Assembly: GCA_964373255.1 (NCBI GenBank)
Contig: CAYJTG010000005.1
Location: forward strand, 10,638 to 74,637
Direction: 5' to 3'
Source of the DNA: an uncultured archaeon
GTDB taxonomy: Archaea; Aenigmatarchaeota; Aenigmatarchaeia; GW2011-AR5
DNA: 64,000 bases
Shown: positions 14,993 to 63,540 of the stretch, piece by piece
Layout of the letters: every line of letters starts with the position of its first letter
Numbering within the stretch: position 1 is the first letter of the stretch
Program-made: the position numbers and the translations under genes
Notes under the pieces: model-generated
Database searches by the model: none
Seen by the model: only the letters and a program-made list of their open reading frames with translations
Told to the model about the DNA's origin: nothing

Positions 14993-15361
14993 TTATCCAC
15001 CCTCGCCAATCTGCTGGTCTTCAGGCATGAGTTCCTTGAACTTGTCCTGTGCTTCCTTTATCCTTTCCTTGATCTTCTTTTCCTGCCTGTCCAGTGTCTG
15101 CAGCTTGAGGTCTATGTCCTCGGCGTTCTGTTTCAGTTCGGCTGTGAGCTGCGCCTTCTCAGTCTTGATCAGTATAGAACCGACAGCCTTGTAGACGTCA
15201 TCGTCTGCCTTCTCTAAATCCTCCAAAGCCTTCTCTATTTCTTTTTTTTGCACGAGCATCGTTTGCTTCTGGATGAGTATGGACTGCATCTGCTGGTTTT
15301 GCAGCTGCAACTGTCCGACAACCTGCTCAAGATCTTTTTTTTCTGCTGGCATAATTATCAC
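14993..15361 (-). CDS. pfdB: Prefoldin beta subunit
   Basis: 122 aa; coiled coil - short beta hairpin (DDDVYKAVGSILIK) - coiled coil. Q/E/K-rich heptads. Confidence 0.7.
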   Translation of the reverse strand: MIIMPAEKKDLEQVVGQLQLQNQQMQSILIQKQTMLVQKKEIEKALEDLEKADDDVYKAVGSILIKTEKAQLTAELKQNAEDIDLKLQTLDRQEKKIKERIKEAQDKFKELMPEDQQIGEGG

Positions 15362-15618
15362 ACAACTTCAGGCGAGGGCACCTCAGCCTGCGGTATGAAA
15401 CCGTCACCCCTCGCCACAAAAAAATACTGTCTGTTTTTTTGGTCAGTTGCATATTCTTTGACAAGTTCTATTTTGTCAGGACCAAAAGCGACAACACACC
15501 CATCCTGAACAATGACATAATTTGTACCGTATTTTTTTAAAGCACCACACTCAAGCAGGACATAATATTTATTTACCTCATCCACGAAACCCTGCGGAAG
15601 CATCAGATCGTGATGCAT
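15358..15618 (-). CDS. Hypothetical protein in the rpoP-pfdB gene string
   Basis: 86 aa, same strand, 4-nt overlap with pfdB. No recognised motif. Confidence 0.3.
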   Translation of the reverse strand: MHHDLMLPQGFVDEVNKYYVLLECGALKKYGTNYVIVQDGCVVAFGPDKIELVKEYATDQKNRQYFFVARGDGFIPQAEVPSPEVV

Positions 15619-15622
15619 AGGA

Positions 15623-15751
15623 TCATCTCGCCTTGACCGTCTTTTTGAATGGTATGCGCGCCTTTGCCAGTATCCTGAACCCGCAGAACGGGCACCTCAC
15701 GCGGTCTTCCATCTCGAACTCTTTCCGGCATTTGACGCAAACATAAGACAT
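15623..15751 (-). CDS. rpoP: DNA-directed RNA polymerase subunit P (Rpo12/RpoP), 42 aa, not in ORF track
   Basis: Hand translation: MSYVCVKCRKEFEMEDRVRCPFCGFRILAKARIPFKKTVKAR. CxxC...CxxC zinc ribbon of the right size and arrangement for Rpo12/Rpc10. Confidence 0.65.
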   Translation of the reverse strand: MSYVCVKCRKEFEMEDRVRCPFCGFRILAKARIPFKKTVKAR

Positions 15752-15761
15752 AACTATCCCT

Positions 15762-16046
15762 CTACATTAAGGAAACGAACAGATAGAAGTTGCAAAGCAA
15801 CTTCAGTTTGCTTTTCCTTATAATCTAGACTTATTATGAAGCAAGTAAATAACCTGAATATTATAACTTGCTTCATTTACATGGAGAATCGAAGATTCTC
15901 CTGTACAATTTCGAATTCCAGGAATTCGAATTGTAATTGAAAATCTGAAGGATTTTCAAATTACAGGTGAAGCGTAGCTTCACCATGTATAGCAAACAAG
16001 AAATATAATATCTGATTCTTTTCTTGTTTAGCTATAATCCCTTCCT
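15762..16046. mobile_element. Composite element in the L37ae-rpoP spacer: family-H element interrupted by a full-length (~203 bp) XY-type hairpin element
   Basis: H left part ctacattaaggaaa...tctagactta (15762-15833), XY insert ttatgaagcaag...gtttagctata (15834-16036), H right end atcccttcct (16037-16046). XY carries 5 hairpin modules. Confidence 0.6.
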
Positions 16047-16068
16047 AAAAGATTTCCAATATATAGAT

Positions 16069-16260
16069 TTATAACCCGAACTCGAATGCACCCGATGCAA
16101 ACTTCACGCTGCACTTTCTGCACCGCCAAACGCCGTTGGACAGTCTTTTCACGGATTTGCGGGAGCACGCAGGGCATTTGTAGAGCTTCGTGGACTTCTT
16201 TCTTGATTCCTCGACAGCCTTTCTTATCCTTTTGCCGTAGCCAACGACCATAATAATCAA
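16069..16260 (-). CDS. rpl37ae: Ribosomal protein L37ae
   Basis: C4 zinc ribbon YKCPACSRKSVKRLSNGVWRCRKCSVKFASGAF matches L37ae (..C..C......R...GIW.C..C......GA). Confidence 0.8.
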   Translation of the reverse strand: MIIMVVGYGKRIRKAVEESRKKSTKLYKCPACSRKSVKRLSNGVWRCRKCSVKFASGAFEFGL

Positions 16261-18884: not shown

Positions 18885-18998
18885 ACACCGTGTAATTTAT
18901 TGTCCTAGAATTTGCCTGATAAATATATTGCGATTAAGTATTTAAGCGTTCTTCGTGGCGAGTTTTACAATCTTGTTCGCATAAAATCTTTTGTTCCG

Positions 18999-19129
18999 GC
19001 TCTGTTGAAAACCTATGAAAAAGCATCGACGTAGACCCTTACGTCTTATCGACGTAAGGGTCAGCTAGAGCTATCATCGAGAGATGATAGCTCTCACGTC
19101 GATGCTTTTATTGAGCATTTCAACAGAGC
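18999..19129. mobile_element. Family-A MITE-like palindromic element, copy A1 (131 bp)
   Basis: Terminal inverted repeat gctctgttgaaa / tttcaacagagc, enclosing inverted repeat aaagcatcgacgt / acgtcgatgcttt, two perfect 12-bp hairpins (gacccttacgtc-ttatc-gacgtaagggtc; agagctatcatc-gaga-gatgatagctct). Confidence 0.75.
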
Positions 19130-19271
19130 CTTTGTTCCATAATTCTAGCACAAATTTCACATATACTGTTTCCACATTTGCCATTCATAGCTTTAGCCGC
19201 AATAAAAAGATTATTCGGATGTATATCTGCATTTCCAGCTATAGAAATAATTAAATTTTTTTTATTCATAA

Positions 19272-21712: not shown

Positions 21713-21752
21713 GATATAACACTAGATAGCAATTCTTATATGATTATTTGAA

Positions 21753-22061
21753 TGGGCTTGGCAGGATTTGAACCTGCGTCACAAGCTCCCAATGAGCATC
21801 AAATTATAGCTCTACAAGGAAAGAAACAAGATACAAGAAAGAACGAAGTTCTTTCTGTACAGCAAGAGCAAAGCTCTTGCTTGTATTACTTCCTTGTGAG
21901 CTATATGTGAAACCGGAAAAACATGTCCGGATTCTTTTCTGGTTTCACTATAAGCTCGGATCATAGTCGTATGAGATGCGAAGCATCTCTATGCTCTAAC
22001 CAAATTGTCCCACCTTCCGCTTTGATGCAGCTTTCTGGAAAGGTGCCTAGACTACAAGCCC
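21753..22061 (-). tRNA. tRNA-like gene with about 235 nt of structured intervening sequence (candidate multi-intron tRNA; anticodon not resolved, loop ATTGGGA suggests Pro/UGG)
   Basis: Minus strand: 5' GGGCTTG-TA-GTCTAGG... and 3' ...GTGAC-GCAGG-TTCAAAT-CCTGC-CAAGCCC-A. 7-bp acceptor helix, canonical T arm, discriminator A. Interior has several perfect hairpins. Confidence 0.5.
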
Positions 22062-22123
22062 TATAGGGATAATGGGTAAAAAGAATTATTAAAAGGCTCT
22101 CTCACAACTAGAACAGTGGTTTA

Positions 22124-22262: not shown

Positions 22263-22514
22263 TTAGAGCCGCATCGATTTATTTATCAGGTTATATTTTT
22301 GACTCTTTGATAGTTTCTTGAACGCCACTTCTGCCCTAAGCGCTTCGCCCTTCGTTTCGTGCGCCCAGTATGCAATAATTTCGACCGGAAGCCTGCTTCT
22401 AGTATATTTTGAGGCTTTTCCTTCATTGTGTAGCTTCAGTCTTCTCTTCAAGTTATTGGTATAACCTGTGTAAAATGATCCGTCCTTGCACTTCAAGACG
22501 TATACGTAGAACAT
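22263..22514 (-). CDS. GIY-YIG nuclease family protein (UPF0213-like)
   Basis: MFYVYVLKCKDGSFYTGYTNNLKRRLKLHNEG matches the GIY..YIG..N...R...H motif. Track ORF (to 22553) extends into MITE copy A4, so the internal Met at 22514 is taken as start. Confidence 0.65.
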   Translation of the reverse strand: MFYVYVLKCKDGSFYTGYTNNLKRRLKLHNEGKASKYTRSRLPVEIIAYWAHETKGEALRAEVAFKKLSKSQKYNLINKSMRL

Positions 22515-22524
22515 AAAATTACCT

Positions 22525-22655
22525 GCTCTGTAGAAATGCTCGATAAAGAGCATCGACGTAGACCTATACGTCTCTTGACGTATAGGTCAGCTAGAGATAT
22601 CATCGATAGATGATATCTCTCACGTCGATGCTCTTGCATAGGTTTTCTACAGAGC
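22525..22655. mobile_element. Family-A MITE-like element, diverged copy A4
   Basis: Same architecture as A1. Both internal hairpins carry compensatory substitutions that keep perfect pairing. Confidence 0.65.
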
Positions 22656-22707
22656 AAAATTACCTAATTATATACTATATATTCGGAAAGGATTAAGTCT
22701 GATTTCT

Positions 22708-22815
22708 CAGGAAGGGATTAAGTCTAGACACACAGAAAGCAAAGCTTTCTGGTGCACCAAAGAACCTTTGGTTCTTTGCGTGTTATAAGGGAAACCCAGG
22801 TTTCCCTTAATGTAG
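22708..22815 (-). repeat. Family-H hairpin-string element, copy H3 (reverse orientation)
   Basis: Reverse complement of the 51654-51761 element: cattaagggaaacccaggtttccctta / aaagaaccaaaggttcttt / cagaaagctttgctttctg / tctagacttaatcccttcctg. Confidence 0.6.
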
Positions 22816-22817
22816 AG

Positions 22818-23029
22818 TGGGCTCGCCCGGAATTTCACCGAAGCAGCATAATACTGCGATAGCCACCTAAGGATGGTAATGCCTTAGGAAGGATATCCTT
22901 CCTCGGCTTTGAACCGGGGTCTCATGCTTTTCAGTTTCTTTACTTGATTTTTCTGACTTTCTTGATTAAACTTCTTTTCAAAAGAAGTTTACCCTAAGCA
23001 CGGATCCTAACCAAACTAGACTACGAGCC
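22818..23029 (-). tRNA. Second tRNA-like gene with ~140 nt structured interior; 3' T-arm non-canonical (uncertain)
   Basis: Minus strand 5' GGGCTCG-TA-GTCTAGTTTGGTTAGGATCC... and 3' ...CGAGCCC-A (7-bp acceptor complement 212 nt apart). 5' 15 nt nearly identical to the 21753-22061 gene. Internal CCCGG-TTCAAAG-CCGAG T-arm-like segment. Interior has perfect hairpins (aaacttctttt-gaaa-agaagttt; gaaggatatccttc). Confidence 0.3.
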
Positions 23030-23069
23030 CATAAATTCTACATAGTTTATTAGATTTTTAAGGGGGTGA

Positions 23070-23212
23070 GACACTGTCAACTTAAGGGGTACATAATGGA
23101 ATCGAAGATTCCACTTGTACAGGTGAAGCTTTGCTTCACCATGTATTAGCTATCGCTAATACCCCAGAAAAGGCTGTTGCCTATAGGCAACAGCCGTTAA
23201 GTTGACAGTGCC
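23070..23212. mobile_element. Family-Z TIR element, copy Z1 (internal module replaced)
   Basis: TIRs cactgtcaacttaag / cttaagttgacagtg; internal ggctgttgcc-tatag-gcaacagcc hairpin. Central segment carries the ggaatcgaagattcc and caggtgaagctttgcttcacc modules seen at 15880-16000. Confidence 0.6.
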
Positions 23213-23217
23213 ATGGA

Positions 23218-24123
23218 GTGAACGTTATTAAAGTTCCGGTACAATTTCTAGAGATGCCTATTCCAAAAGGTTTTGATGACCTCGTTAAATTAGCCGTGAA
23301 GGACAGGCCGGAGAAGCCAAAAACCATCGAGGAAGTATGGGATAAATTTCTTTTTGTTGTTTTCATGGGCGGAAAGCGGTCAGAGCCTGAAATACAGTTT
23401 ATTACAACCATGCTCAAGGCAAAGAAACTTGTCCAGTTTGACTATGTCCTGAAGACAGACGGCGACGACTGGCGCGAAGCCGTTGAAGCAGTGCTCAACG
23501 ACCGATTGAAGAGAATGCAGGACGAGGACCTTAAGGTAGCGCTAAAAGAATTCCAAAAAGAGATATTTAGGATAAGCGCTTCAATCAAGGGGGGTGCACG
23601 ATTTTTAAAAAACATGACACCTGACGGACTCGCCGAGGCGCTCAGCAACAAAGAAAAGACTTGGGAATTCATCGAAAACCTGGCCAACAACCAGGACGTT
23701 TCCAACATAAAGTATACAAAGATAATCATTTGGCTGCATTCCATAGGCTACGGCTATGATTTTTGCCCGCCGAGCTGGCAAACAAAAAAATTCATCAATA
23801 CCGAGGTCGGGCCGTATTACAACTTCTACGAGGACGATAAGTATTTCATGAAAAAAGCCGAGGAGTTTTCTGAAGACGTCAAGAAAAAGGTCAAAGGCGC
23901 AACAGCCCGAGACGTGTCTGCGGCAATTTATTATTATATGGTATTAAAAAATTCTCTCCCCACGCGTTCTCCAATAAAGAAAAGATGTACGGCGGCGGTC
24001 ATAGTCCGGTTCCTTAAGAAAAAGAAGCTTTCACTTAAAGACATTTCTGCCGCTCTTGTCGATTTTGACGGCAGAGAGAGGATTATGAAAACATTTTTTG
24101 AATTTTTGAATAAGACAAAATAA
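23218..24123 (+). CDS. Hypothetical protein, 301 aa
   Basis: Long ORF with reasonable codon usage; no motif recognised. Confidence 0.3.
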   Translation: MNVIKVPVQFLEMPIPKGFDDLVKLAVKDRPEKPKTIEEVWDKFLFVVFMGGKRSEPEIQFITTMLKAKKLVQFDYVLKTDGDDWREAVEAVLNDRLKRMQDEDLKVALKEFQKEIFRISASIKGGARFLKNMTPDGLAEALSNKEKTWEFIENLANNQDVSNIKYTKIIIWLHSIGYGYDFCPPSWQTKKFINTEVGPYYNFYEDDKYFMKKAEEFSEDVKKKVKGATARDVSAAIYYYMVLKNSLPTRSPIKKRCTAAVIVRFLKKKKLSLKDISAALVDFDGRERIMKTFFEFLNKTK

Positions 24124-34980: not shown

Positions 34981-35167
34981 GCTCTGTAGAAAACCTATGC
35001 AAGAGCATCGACGTGAGAGCTATTATCTTCTAAGATAACAAAGTTATCTTGAAGATTCAGGTTGACTTTGTCAACCATGAATCTGTCGATAATAGCTCTA
35101 GCTGACCTATACGTCAAGAGACGTATAGGTCTACGTCGATGCTCTTTATCGTGCATTTCTACAGAGC
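34981..35167. mobile_element. Family-A MITE-like element, copy A5 with inverted core plus a 70-bp insert
   Basis: Same TIRs and cgtcgatgc inverted repeats as A1. Internal hairpin pair is in reverse-complement order relative to A1/A2/A3. Also carries an extra insert ttctaagataacaaagttatcttgaa... Confidence 0.65.
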
Positions 35168-35220
35168 TTTACATAGGAAATCTCATCAACTTTTTATAAA
35201 AGGCACTACAATAGATTTCT

Positions 35221-39912: not shown

Positions 39913-40097
39913 GGAGATACAGGCATAGTCATGCAAGGAAATAATCAGTATATAATTATACCCTTGCTGACTATATGTGAAACCAGTCATAGCATGTCCA
40001 GATTATTTACTGGTTTCACTATAAACCGCATTACAAACATCTTTATACAACATAGTTCTAACTTCTAACAGAAAACGATAAAAAATTATGAAAATGA

Positions 40098-42448: not shown

Positions 42449-42616
42449 ACTACATTAAGGGAAAAGAACAGATAGAAGTTGCTTCGCAACTTCAGTTTGT
42501 CTTTCCCTTAAAATGCTCAAAGAACCGAAGGTTCTTTGACATCTGCAAAGAAGCATAGCTTCTTTGAGATTCCGAAAAGCTTTGCTTTCTGAGCATCTAG
42601 ACTTAATCCTTTCCTG
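42449..42616 (+). repeat. Family-H hairpin-string element, copy H1, abutting the gltX stop codon
   Basis: ctacattaagggaaa[...gaagttgc-ttcg-gcaacttc...]tttccctta / aaagaaccgaaggttcttt / ...tctagacttaatcctttcctg. Confidence 0.6.
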
Positions 42617-42794
42617 AATATTTTCTCATAAACTTCCCTATAATCAGCAGATCTTCACCTTTTGCAAAATGGCTTTTCAGTTTTCCTTCTTTGAAATCTC
42701 CATATTCCTTGAAAAACGGAAAATATTGTAGAAATAGAATAGTAATTACAAATAGTACAAAATATTCTTATACTACCTAAAACCAGTATTAATC

Positions 42795-46606: not shown

Positions 46607-46650
46607 GATTGTGATGTGTAAACCAAATCTTAAATACGTAAAAAACTAGA

Positions 46651-46846
46651 GCACTGTCAACTTATTATGAAGCAAGTAAATAATCTGGATATTATAGCAA
46701 ACAAGAAATATAATACCTGATTCTTTTCTTGTTTAGCTATAAGGGTGGTTAGCCATTGCTAACCACCCAGAAAAGGCTGTTGCCAAAGCAGATAGACGCA
46801 CTTTAGTGCGTCAGTTTGTTTCAACAGCCGCTAAGTTGACAGTGCC
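46651..46846. mobile_element. Family-Z TIR element, copy Z2, with two nested insertions
   Basis: TIRs gcactgtcaactta / taagttgacagtgcc. A 79-bp XY-type element (ttatgaagcaagtaaataatctg...gtttagctata) inserted after caactta. A second hairpin module (agatagacgcactttagtgcgtcagtttgtttc) lies inside the ggctgttgcc...aacagcc loop. Confidence 0.6.
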
Positions 46847-46850
46847 AAAA

Positions 46851-48889: not shown

Positions 48890-48910
48890 GATTATAAACC
48901 TCTTACTTTG

Positions 48911-49041
48911 GCTCTGTTGAAAACCTATGAAAAAGCATCGACGTAGACCCTTACGTCTTATCGACGTAAGGGTCAGCTAGAGCTATTGTCAAAAGACAAT
49001 AGCTCTCACGTCGATGCTTTTATTGAGCATTTCAACAGAGC
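48911..49041. mobile_element. Family-A MITE-like element, copy A2, filling the S24e-S27ae spacer
   Basis: Identical TIRs and outer stems to A1. Second hairpin carries compensatory change (ctattgtc-aaaa-gacaatag versus ctatcatc-gaga-gatgatag). Confidence 0.75.
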
Positions 49042-51642: not shown

Positions 51643-51653
51643 TCTAAATCACT

Positions 51654-51761
51654 CTACATTAAGGGAAACCCAGGTTTCCCTTATAACACGCAAAGAACCA
51701 AAGGTTCTTTGGTGCACCAGAAAGCTTTGCTTTCTGTGTGTCTAGACTTAATCCCTTCCTG
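51654..51761 (+). repeat. Family-H hairpin-string element, copy H2, immediately upstream of rpoE
   Basis: cattaagggaaacccaggtttccctta / aaagaaccaaaggttcttt / cagaaagctttgctttctg / tctagacttaatcccttcctg. Confidence 0.6.
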
Positions 51762-52016
51762 AAATTTTTGCTTAAGCTTTTTTAAAAAAGCTTACTAGAC
51801 TTGCCTTCCCTCACTTGCCTGTTTGTTCTCATGAGTAGTTAGAAATTTTAAAATCATGAAGAACATATCTTTCTTGAGAGTAAGAGGTTTTAAAGCTTTC
51901 TTTCATCGGTATTGAAAAATTAACATTCCACCATTTTTCTACAGTATCTCCGAAAGTTGGATTACTGCCTCTTTGCAGTAATCCTCTACCGAGGTATATG
52001 CCACAAGGCGTATACC

Positions 52017-52307: not shown

Positions 52308-52546
52308 CGAATAAACCCGATTCCAACTATCATAGAAAACTTTTTAAAGACGTTTCTGTTTTTTGTTCTGTATGTTAAGTTAATGTGATCCAAATAAATA
52401 ATCGTGATACTAAATTTGGATCACAGTACATAGCGAAACAAAGTTTCGCTTGTACAGGTAAAGCTTTGCTTTACCATGTACTGTGCACAAGGAATGTAAT
52501 ATACCGATTCATTCCTTGTAGCACATTAAAAGAAAACAGAGCCCGT

Positions 52547-55977: not shown

Positions 55978-56263
55978 TCTTCAACACCTTCTATTTTTTA
56001 TTAGGGCGATACATAAGTCGGTCTAGTTGTTTGTTGATTGAGCAAAGACCGTCTTTCGTATTCAATACCCCTTTATATTTTCGTTAGAAACAGGACCTCA
56101 ATGAAGCTCTAGTAAAAGCGAAAAATCGCCCCGACTTCTTAACTAAAGCCAAAAACCCTGAATTCCGGGTTCCTTCTGCCTTACTTCCCTTCACTTACTT
56201 CCTTTCCCTAACAGTACTAATTATTGATAAAAGATAAGTATTTAAAAAGGATAAATCGGAGGG

Positions 56264-56351
56264 GCACTGTCAACTTAAGGGTGGTTAGCTGTTGCTAACC
56301 ACCCAGAAAAGGCTGTTGCCGATAGGCAACAGCCGTTAAGTTGACAGTGCC
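56264..56351. mobile_element. Family-Z TIR element, compact canonical copy Z3 (88 bp)
   Basis: ggcactgtcaacttaag / gggtggttagc-tgtt-gctaaccaccc / agaaaa / ggctgttgcc-gatag-gcaacagcc / gttaagttgacagtgcc. Two perfect hairpins inside perfect 16-bp TIRs. Confidence 0.7.
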
Positions 56352-61544: not shown

Positions 61545-61722
61545 CAATCGTAATTTTCCCGTGGTTTTAGCAAACGCTTTAATAGTTTTGTAGGTTATTT
61601 TTTTGTTACTGGTCAAAAGATACAAAGAGATACATTTATAAAGTTTATGTACAATGAAAATGTAGACAAATTTCAAAAAAATCACGAAAAATAGGAAGGG
61701 ATTAAGTCTAGATTATAAGGGT

Positions 61723-62553
61723 GTGGATATGGTTGCAAGCAATAAGACACTGGATATGCTGAAAACAATCGGCTTGAATAAGTACGAACGCAATTTGTGG
61801 ACAGCGCTTCTTTCTAGAGGTGCGTCTACAGCCGGAGAATTAAGTGATATTTCCAACGTTCCTCGTTCTAGATGCTACGACGTGTTAGAGTCATTGGCAA
61901 CAAAAGGCTTCATTGTAATACAGCCTGGAAAGCCGATAAAATACGTTGCCATGAACCCTAAGGAGGCTTTGGAGCGCGTCAAAAAGAAGATTCGTGAAGA
62001 CGCGGTTGAGACAACGGAAAAGATCGAGCGATTCCTTAAGAGCGACTCGATAAGGGAGCTTGAAAGGCTGCACAAGGAAAATATGAAGGTCATGAACCCT
62101 GAGGACCTTACGGGCGCACTGAAGGGCAGGTACGCCATGCACCAGCAGGTTGAGACGATGCTGAAAAATGCAAAGAAATCCGTGAAGCTTCTTACCACAG
62201 ACCGCGGCCTGAAAGAATTGCTCGATACCCACGGTCCTTTGCTAAAGAGGGTTTCCAATTCTGGCGTGAAAATCCAGATCGCTGCGCCCGTCAGAAAGGA
62301 TGCATTAGATACTGTAAAAGAGCTGGCACAGTACGCGCAGGTAAGAAATATCAGTGATGTTGAGATGGTTGAAAAATTTGCAGGGCGACTTTTCGTTGTT
62401 GACGGCCAGGAATTCGTGCTTGGCCTGACAGACGACACAAAAATACACCCGACACAGGATGTGGCTTTGTGGACGCAGAGCTCGCACGCATCTTCTTCGG
62501 TTTTCGAGCCCATGTTTGAGCTCGTCTGGCATCATGCTAAGCCCGTTAAGTGA
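61723..62553 (+). CDS. TrmB-family transcriptional regulator (third copy)
   Basis: LNKYERNLWTALLSRGASTAGELSDISNVPRSRCYDVLESLATKGFI wHTH plus TrmB C-terminal domain. 276 aa. Confidence 0.6.
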   Translation: MDMVASNKTLDMLKTIGLNKYERNLWTALLSRGASTAGELSDISNVPRSRCYDVLESLATKGFIVIQPGKPIKYVAMNPKEALERVKKKIREDAVETTEKIERFLKSDSIRELERLHKENMKVMNPEDLTGALKGRYAMHQQVETMLKNAKKSVKLLTTDRGLKELLDTHGPLLKRVSNSGVKIQIAAPVRKDALDTVKELAQYAQVRNISDVEMVEKFAGRLFVVDGQEFVLGLTDDTKIHPTQDVALWTQSSHASSSVFEPMFELVWHHAKPVK

Positions 62554-63337: not shown

Positions 63338-63377
63338 AATTTTATATGGCGGATTGTGTTTATATTGGTTTTTATTA

Positions 63378-63509
63378 GCTCTGTTGAAAACCTATGAAAA
63401 AGCATCGACGTAGACCCTTACGTCTTATCTACGTAAGGGTCAGCTAGAGCTATCATCAACAGACGATAGCTCTCACGTCGATGCTTTTTGTTGAGCATTT
63501 CTACAGAGC
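63378..63509. mobile_element. Family-A MITE-like element, copy A3
   Basis: Near-identical to A1 over the first 75 bp; right hairpin variant (ctatcatc-aaca-gacgatag); right TIR tttctacagagc. Confidence 0.75.
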
Positions 63510-63540
63510 CTTTTTATTCTTTCTTCTGAATACGGATTCT

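Follow-up and report, generated by a model that had tools for sequence, protein, structure and literature searches.

Nested double-hairpin elements in the spacer between the L37ae and rpoP genes of an Aenigmatarchaeota archaeon

Correia elements insert at TA, and we know of no transposase for them. These repeats of Neisseria, also termed NEMIS or CREE, are about 100-155 bp long, non-autonomous, palindromic and intergenic, with TATAG...CTATA ends, and in all of these properties they resemble a family of hairpin elements identified in a 64,000-nucleotide stretch of DNA from an uncultured archaeon, called the window in the following. The Correia inverted repeat begins with 5'-tatagtgg... (PMC5039591), and a second source places the elements between co-transcribed genes, where they can lie, and ascribes promoter-like ends to them (PMC2649163). 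However, only TATAG(T) is common to both families, while the rest of the inverted repeat is unrelated (TATAGTGAAMCCAG versus TATAGTGGATTAAC), and the 26-bp Correia inverted repeat TATAGTGGATTAA(C/A)... was not found in the archaeal consensus (Correia sequences from PMC5039591). In addition, the Correia host is a bacterium, and Correia elements are neither built of independent double hairpins nor known to nest four deep.

To our knowledge, REPINs have been described in bacteria only. They consist of two inverted palindromic units, which form one long hairpin or a two-hairpin 'clover', and they depend on one enzyme acting in trans, the RAYT protein (PMC3116915). Two inverted palindromes of this kind were found in the backbone (B), core (C), inner (I) and T units described below. 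Like the archaeal elements, REPINs enter existing copies or their immediate surroundings and build up clusters, and the hairpin rather than the sequence is apparently kept. A TA gain, in contrast, is not known for REPINs, and a search of the partial genomes with an approximate query, a weak test, gave no RAYT or Y1 enzyme.

TA-targeting MITEs of the Tc1/mariner-IS630 type include the nested MITEs of plants and the pithovirus M1/M2 repeats, and no transposase was found for the latter (PMC10664404). An AT/TA target duplication, a strong fold-back structure and nested or multimeric insertions are common to these MITEs and to the family described here, and a further likeness to IS630/Tc1 is that the core and inner elements begin with 5'-CA beside TA. 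The archaeal units are, however, far smaller (52-96 nt) and reside in an archaeal host, and each of their 'terminal repeats' is a covarying hairpin, whose upkeep is not obviously expected of a DDE transposase that reads sequence. The small dispersed repeats (SDRs) of cyanobacteria, which are cited in PMC3116915, and the double-hairpin elements and GC clusters of mitochondria are also tiny hairpin repeats that insert in one another and in other repeats, and no mechanism mobilising them is known. They reside in other hosts and have no sequence relationship to the archaeal family.

DPANN archaea have very small, gene-dense genomes. High MITE densities were reported for some of these genomes in a census (PMC11602168). 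About 87% of the window is coding and typical spacers are 20-70 bp long, and nearly every long spacer is filled with hairpin elements. In total, 43 perfect short hairpins were identified compared to 4.1 expected, 38 of them in the intergenic 13%. We consider it probable, with a likelihood of about three in four, that nested non-autonomous MITE/REPIN-like double-hairpin elements, inserted one after the other, expanded the spacer between the genes for L37ae and RpoP. Here a four-level nest splits a gene junction that ranks among the most conserved in archaea. The elements bear on the tolerance of operons to insertions and possibly on how long tRNA introns arose in this group. With its discrete modules, precise junctions, many diverged copies and strong covariation confined to Watson-Crick pairs, the family is a clean case for the spread and stem upkeep of palindromic repeats that lack a transposase. 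The literature searched gave no account of the family, nor of comparable nesting in archaea.

The L37ae-rpoP junction and its modules

The two genes flanking the spacer are both located on the minus strand:

15623-15751, minus strand: rpoP (RNA polymerase subunit P/Rpo12), downstream of the spacer; PF03604, 31.2 bits, cutoff 24
16069-16251, minus strand: rpl37ae, upstream of the spacer; PF01780, 59.2 bits

For rpl37ae, the ATG at 16251 is a likelier start than the TTG at 16260; the gene has 60 codons for amino acids as called in L001 (handles of this form denote the loci that were compared with the window). Orthologues of rpoP were found in the loci of relatives, and the gene order ProRS, proteasome, CPSF, L37ae, RpoP and prefoldin is common to them. 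The preliminary description of this DNA had stated that the L37ae and rpoP genes are normally neighbours, and this was confirmed by six syntenic loci, in which the gap is 2-49 bp (L002, 25 bp; L003, 10 bp; L004, 3 bp; L009, 2 bp; L011, 34 bp; L012, 49 bp). The spacer of 317 bp in the window is thus a derived state. A composite stack of hairpins occupies 287 bp of it (15760-16046) and contains eight perfect hairpins, and the statement that the spacer consists of repeat modules was borne out almost entirely.

The nearest relatives of the CPSF-like neighbour gene, with 53-79% identity, were found in MAGs of Aenigmatarchaeota (DPANN), and an assignment to Methanosarcina, suggested by GC content and gene order, was rejected in view of these relatives. 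An exact match to the CPSF protein was identified only in one 3-kb Logan contig (L001), which ends inside the hairpin element. This sole other assembly of the locus illustrates the fragmentation of MAG assemblies at such elements, and its break at 16009 could be taken to mean that the long spacer is an assembly artefact, namely a repeat-induced chimera. However, before it breaks within the repeat, the same contig is an exact copy of the 60 nt at 16009-16068, which include the right junction; every junction of the composite has a precise counterpart elsewhere, and variants with six hairpins were assembled independently in L141, L147, L152 and L161. A chimera is scarcely credible in view of these matches.

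In other loci the same junction is widened by small ORFs (L007:4015-4325, L008:12455-12719, L013:11874-12067) or filled by unrelated hairpins (L010:2738-2896, L020:5514-5615), and it seems to be repeatedly permissive to insertions across the Aenigmatarchaeota. On the other side of rpoP, an 86-aa ORF without a Pfam match (15358-15618, minus strand) lies between rpoP and the gene for prefoldin beta. Room for this ORF exists in L003 and L008, with gaps of about 260 and 233 bp between rpoP and prefoldin, and it is absent from L002, L004, L011 and L012, where rpoP overlaps the prefoldin gene.

The composite consists of the following parts:

15760-15833, minus strand: H cassette, gene-proximal part; matches the H copies at 22707-22819, 51650-51762, 42450-42635 and L003:7637
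15768-75/15813-20: H stem, a perfect hairpin
15776-15812: S, an inserted single hairpin (CAGATAG-stem-AGTTTG) within the H palindrome loop
within 15786-15804: S stem gaagttgc/gcaacttc, a perfect hairpin
15832-15833: TA of the TTAA target, left copy (right copy at 16035-16036)
15834-15879: backbone B, left half, with HP1 (15836-15876) and, at its end, the TA at 15878-79; match to covariance model R1
15880-15905: core C, left half, CATGG-ggagaatc gaa gattctcc-TGTA, a perfect hairpin
15906-15963: inner double hairpin I with duplicated TA (hairpins 15910-15930 and 15937-15959), in the central TGTACA of the core
15964-15989: core C, right half, CAGG-tgaagc gta gcttca-CCATGTA; pattern CAGGTNAAGCNNNGCTTNACCATGTA
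15990-16036: backbone B, right half (HP4, 15991-16033) with the TA at 16035-36; from the R1 alignment
16037-16046, minus strand: H cassette, gene-distal end, atcccttcct (AGGAAGGGAT in gene sense), joined to tctagactta in uninterrupted H

The nesting is at least four levels deep, with the H cassette enclosing the backbone, the backbone the core and the core the inner double hairpin, and each unit was also found alone or uninterrupted at other sites. Together, the material inserted in H sums to 203 nt (93 + 52 + 58). A hairpin element of 203 bp had been proposed to split H exactly between ...gactta and atccc..., and the comparison to uninterrupted H copies agrees with this. The nesting of this XY element in H was correctly described, but too shallow, since XY is not one unit; it is itself composed of backbone, core and inner element. 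Likewise, all five of the hairpins listed for it are present and perfect, while a sixth hairpin in XY and two in H had been missed. The six hairpins of XY are located at 15836-46/15866-76 (11 bp), 15883-90/15894-901 (8 bp), 15910-19/15921-30 (10 bp), 15937-45/15951-59 (9 bp), 15966-73/15977-84 (8 bp) and 15994-16003/16020-29 (10 bp). HP4 carries a bulged A at 16030, which is conserved across the family. The S hairpin is missing from the minimal H copies (L003, 51650) and present in the H copy at 42450.

The three copies that had been suggested for comparison were all found to be related. The copy at 46663-46742 shares the outer arms with the composite at 95-98% identity (left half of the backbone 95% identical to 46660-46696, right half 98% identical to 46693-46742), the copy at 23087-23155 has the core in common with it, and the copy at 52381-52528 is a complete canonical element, scoring 123 bits. 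The first of these was considered as an empty site for the core, but its HP1 has no 3' arm. It is an internally deleted derivative, with the deletion lying between two tata repeats, and was rejected as an empty site.

Copies of the elements and their insertion sites

A scan of metagenomes with the core pattern CAGGTNAAGCNNNGCTTNACCATGTA returned 93 stretches, and the core family comprises 99 pattern matches. In 26 of 33 unique metagenome copies a discrete form of 147-149 nt was identified, which corresponds to backbone plus core (about 148 nt) and has the plan TATAG-HP1-aTACATGG-HP2-CCTGTA/CAGG-HP3-CCATGTAt-HP4-CTATA. More than 50 distinct copies of this element are known from groundwater and sediment metagenomes and from Aenigmatarchaeota MAGs. 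The MAGs with elements are JBAZQV01, JACPAG01, JAZDMZ01, JAGVVY01, JAPLUZ01 and JAGVVX01. A backbone-only form of about 96 nt, TATAG-HP1-cacATATAG-HP4-CTATA, is also common (39924-40023 in the window and 13 others). The 52-nt core, TACATGG-hairpin-CCTGTACAGG-hairpin-CCATGTA, was found alone as well. Some of these solitary cores occupy the tip or the centre of a host hairpin unrelated to them, one lies in a T-element stem at 23088, and another was found within a tRNA intron. The inner insertion is absent from the canonical 148-nt copies; the variant with six hairpins, in which the inner element lies in the core, has compensated stems and also occurs in L141, L147, L152 and L161. All modules are alike in build, with stems of 8-11 bp and loops of 3-5 nt, and the plan x-hp-x'x-hp-x' (hp, hairpin) is common to the B, C, I and T units.

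With the covariance model R1, six copies or derivatives were identified in the 64-kb window, among them the complete element at 52381-52528. In the set of orthologous loci, R1 matched only L003, L005, L008, L016, L020 and L040, all of them from Aenigmatarchaeota with a CPSF identity of at least 65%, and no match was obtained in the loci from Woese- and Nanoarchaeota in this set. The positions of the elements differ between L003, L005, L008, L016 and L020. In 0.5 Mb of metagenome loci R1 gave 241 matches, with both strands counted, and up to five copies were present per 13 kb. The viral contigs scanned with the core pattern gave 0 matches.

The family has several of the properties by which MITEs are recognised. 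Elements are short (52-148 nt), non-coding, multi-copy and mostly intergenic, 38 of 52 overlapping an ORF of at least 80 aa by no more than 34 nt. TATAG...CTATA ends, as terminal inverted repeats, were found in 49 of 89 unique elements, and the whole element is a pseudo-palindrome. A target-site duplication is indicated by five independent comparisons of empty and filled sites, in each of which one TA was gained, so that filled and empty sites differ by the insert and a single additional TA. Uninterrupted H reads tctagacttaatcccttcct at 22707-22819, 51650-51762, 61692-61720 and L003:7637, compared to tctagactta[203 nt]atcccttcct in the spacer; the empty site gacTTAAtccc of these four copies is thus represented by gact-TA-[203 nt]-TA-atccc. 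A T element holds the same backbone subfamily at caacTTAAggg. For the core, the empty site cacaTAtag is present in 14 backbone-only copies and the filled site reads caca-TA-CATGG..CCATG-TA-tag, and for the inner element cctgTAcagg is replaced by cctg-TA-[56 nt]-TA-cagg. An insertion in a loop at 21805-21952 has the empty counterpart gtaaTAtcttg. Finally, a tRNA-Pro intron has no insert in the window (agtTTAAtcaa, 22940-23000), and its homologue in L109:1-300 (minus strand; identical to L128) is filled by the core, where it reads agttTA[CATGG..CCATG]TAatcaa, and this represents a filled and empty pair between species.

Of 49 canonical copies, 40 have a T directly outside TATAG and 34 an A directly outside CTATA, a preference that fits a TTAA target with TA duplication, and both backbone sites in the window read ACTTA/A. 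A TA owned by the element is indistinguishable from a target duplication, and the sites would also fit insertion 3' of a TA by an element that ends in TA. Such a mode would recall IS200/IS605-derived (PATE-like) elements, which enter 3' of a fixed tetra- or pentanucleotide and make no duplication. One exception was identified, a double hairpin between ttataa and tctaga in the H copies at 22707 and 51650, which shows no TA gain. Alleles with and without an element were sought among all loci compared, and only identical duplicates, with no polymorphism at the strain level, were obtained; the case for mobile elements is therefore built on empty sites in paralogous copies and in other species.

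On the basis of these sites, the spacer would have grown from about 10-30 bp to 317 bp, with each insert landing inside the previous one. In a first step, an H cassette would have arrived with its TTATAA box, its palindrome and an SD-like GAGGGAT just 5' of the rpoP ATG. In a second step, the two-hairpin backbone of about 96 nt would have entered TTAA in the gene-distal end of H. The 52-nt core would then have been inserted at the TA in the centre of the backbone, unless both arrived together as the 148-nt composite, and in the fourth step the 58-nt inner double hairpin would have entered the TA of the central TGTACA of the core. The elements probably move as DNA and would be mobilised in trans by an enzyme which they do not encode, and a preference for palindrome centres and hairpin tips would make the nesting self-reinforcing.

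A local origin without transposition was also considered, by which palindrome amplification, template switching or slippage at an initial hairpin generated the composite and gene conversion made the copies similar. Tandem arrays of short hairpins with TGTACA between them do exist (L166), one architecture is shared by all modules, and no transposase was found, all of which would agree with such an origin. However, the discrete units recur with unchanged ends at numerous unlinked sites and in more than one species, the boundaries of the inserts are exact, exactly one TA is gained, and the flanks show a TTAA-like preference. These features make a purely local origin very unlikely.

Constraint on DNA or on RNA

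Sense RNA of the 317-nt spacer is predicted to fold with -106.7 kcal/mol (z = -9.3), and the same spacer as DNA with -65.1 kcal/mol (z = -11.8); in neither case was a shuffled sequence as good. Covariation was analysed on a set of 20 oriented copies (A2), aligned with MAFFT without reference to structure. In this set 97.7% of the cells are paired and 21 of 41 pairs were changed on both sides; none of 500 shuffles reached these values, and slid registers gave about 42%. A larger set (A3), with sequences of both strands fitted to the model, gave 94.3% paired cells and 39 of 41 pairs.

Such values could also be explained if the 148-nt unit and its relatives were structured ncRNA genes or RNA modules acting in cis, for example as mRNA stabilisers, processing sites or intercistronic regulators uncoupling L37ae and rpoP, with the apparent nesting reflecting insertions tolerated at loop tips. 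Very strong covariation in all four helices, the conserved bulged A in HP4, the tightly kept length of the element and the folding of the spacer RNA speak for RNA modules of this kind, as does the location of elements between co-oriented genes and in tRNA introns, from which it follows that they are probably transcribed. Perfect stems in diverged copies would fit a selected structural function as well, and purifying selection acting on a folded RNA would likewise spare only those insertions that lie in loops and centres.

Other properties of the copies argue against an RNA function. In the stem cells of 52 unique copies, 1979 Watson-Crick pairs, 33 G.T, 21 A.C and 42 other combinations were counted, so that G.U is no commoner than the other mismatches. 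Both strands of the element score with the covariance model, and the orientation relative to co-directional neighbour genes is random (13 same, 10 opposite); spacers with elements are of all kinds, tandem, convergent and divergent. Covariation is present, though the wobble tolerance and strand specificity of a functional RNA were not found. Scans against Rfam, with the whole window at the gathering score and by two local E-value scans, gave nothing relevant, the best hit below the threshold being unrelated (E = 0.52). Furthermore, the copies are dense, many of them are deleted, truncated or re-inserted derivatives, and the modules occur in many unrelated contexts.

Strong covariation without an excess of G·U, the lack of a strand bias relative to the genes and the lack of an Rfam match point to a constraint that acts on the DNA of a mobile element rather than on an RNA gene. 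The preliminary description had likewise preferred a mobile element over a dedicated ncRNA gene, and this preference is favoured by the same absence of an Rfam match and of an orientation or wobble bias, together with the occurrence of the units alone. Structured RNA modules are accordingly considered improbable, and the reading as successively inserted mobile hairpins is retained in the following.

The H cassette, candidate enzymes and related hairpins

In gene sense, the gene-proximal part of H in the spacer reads TAAGTCTAGA-TTATAAGG-palindrome-TTAATGTAGAGGGAT and ends 8 nt before the rpoP ATG. The consensus of H in gene sense is AGGAAGGGATTAAGTCTAGA-TTATAAGGG-palindrome-CCCTTAATGTAGAG(T/G)GAT, with the ATG following 4-6 nt later. 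H cassettes are located directly 5' of rpoP and rpoE' in the window, of the ProRS gene in L003 and of ORFs in L165 and L084/L141, and a partial H without the palindrome lies 5' of a TrmB-family gene at 61723. From TT(A/G/T)TAA to the ATG the distance is 36-38 nt in uninterrupted H (ProRS in L003, L165, L084/L141 and rpoE' in the window), and from TTATAA to the ATG it is 66 nt in the H copy of the spacer.

Most genes in the window have a box of the TTTAAA/TTATAA type 27-35 nt before the ATG and no SD sequence, which suggests that transcripts of the window are mainly leaderless. SD-like GGTG/GAGG motifs are mostly found 5' of internal operon genes and after H cassettes. Since most window genes look leaderless, H could be a portable promoter with an SD leader, and it has the look of a cassette for gene boundaries more than that of an ordinary repeat. 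Two H copies, however, lie antisense against the 3' ends of genes, a tRNA and the GluRS gene (22804, 42461), which speaks against the promoter reading. No run of five or more T was found on either strand of the spacer, and a terminator composed of a hairpin and oligo-T was rejected for this reason. As the nest is located upstream of the TTATAA of H and such T runs are absent, rpoP expression is probably preserved, by read-through, by the promoter and SD sequence carried by H, or by both.

A transposase or another mobilising gene was identified neither in the window nor in 1.86 Mb of loci, which represent partial genomes, and no recurrent transposase-like ORF family was present across 0.58 Mb of element-bearing sequence. 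Of 18 ORFs of the window searched against Pfam, four had no match, and the others were identified as housekeeping genes apart from one GIY-YIG nuclease. A tblastn search with an approximate IS608-type TnpA sequence as query, a weak test, gave no match. With no mobilising gene and no strain-level polymorphism found, the mechanism of movement is inferred rather than shown. The covariation in each 'terminal repeat', which involves Watson-Crick pairs only, suggests recognition or repair of a hairpin or cruciform, and the enzyme or process involved may read such structures in DNA, in a manner similar to HUH/Y1 enzymes and REPINs. A TA-specific DDE transposase of the IS630/Tc1 type would be the rival mobiliser.

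The GIY-YIG protein is a stand-alone protein of 96 aa (22263-22553, minus strand; PF01541, 71 bits), which is encoded in the most repeat-rich stretch and has conserved counterparts in L003, L008 and L012. Speculatively, it may be a structure-specific nuclease with the hairpins as its substrate. A 301-aa ORF without a Pfam match (23218-24123, plus strand) starts at the end of a T element and is the most recurrent ORF among the element-bearing loci (5 loci, about 61% identity); it is probably a lineage-specific housekeeping gene.

A wider proposal is tentative and, in our view, doubtful. By this proposal, a clade of Aenigmatarchaeota would host self-nesting, non-coding, double-hairpin mobile elements whose targets are DNA palindromes, at their centres and tips, with other elements of the set and tRNA introns among them. 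The elements would be kept paired by a process reading DNA hairpins and moved by an unrecognised enzyme. This enzyme might be HUH/RAYT-like, might be a nuclease specific for structure (the GIY-YIG protein at 22263-22553 is an example), or might come from the cell that hosts the archaeon as a symbiont. H would be a mobile promoter/SD module able to give an internal operon gene, here rpoP, expression signals of its own.

Related hairpins were also identified in and next to tRNA genes of the window. A tRNA-Pro-like gene (22818-23031, minus strand; GGGCTCG...CGAGCCCA) has an intron of about 140 nt, and an H cassette adjoins its 3' end. ARAGORN with default settings reported no tRNA genes in the window, and the gene at 22818-23031 was missed by Rfam as well; with introns allowed, ARAGORN predicted a false tRNA from the 5' half of this gene and the 3' half of another tRNA, at a distance of 1.2 kb, and this prediction was rejected. 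This other gene is tRNA-Pro(TGG)-like (21752-22062, minus strand; GGGCTTG...CAAGCCCA, T-arm GCAGGTTCAAATCCTGC) and 311 nt long, with several insertions, including the backbone at 21805-21952, which lies just past the 5' strand of the anticodon stem. Mobile hairpins appear to reside in, or to make up, long non-canonical tRNA introns.

The T element is present at 56263-56347, 23070-23215 and 46650-46848 and has the plan x-hairpin-hairpin-x', in which a closing stem of 14 bp, CACTGTCAACTTAA...TTAAGTTGACAGTG, encloses two hairpins; nested inserts were found in two of the three copies (the core in one, a deleted backbone in the other). The S module (15776-15812, 42470-42500 and about 46790-46825 inside a T element; also in L120 and L166) has constant flanks, CAGATAG...CAGTTTG, and stems that differ and are fully compensated, for example aagttgc/gcaactt versus acgcac/gtgcgt. 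Separate palindromic repeats of about 130 nt, 77-95% identical to each other, are located at 18996-19133, 22522-22658, 34981-35170, 48904-49041 and 63375-63513, and each of them has paired short hairpins, such as cttacgtc ttatc gacgtaag.
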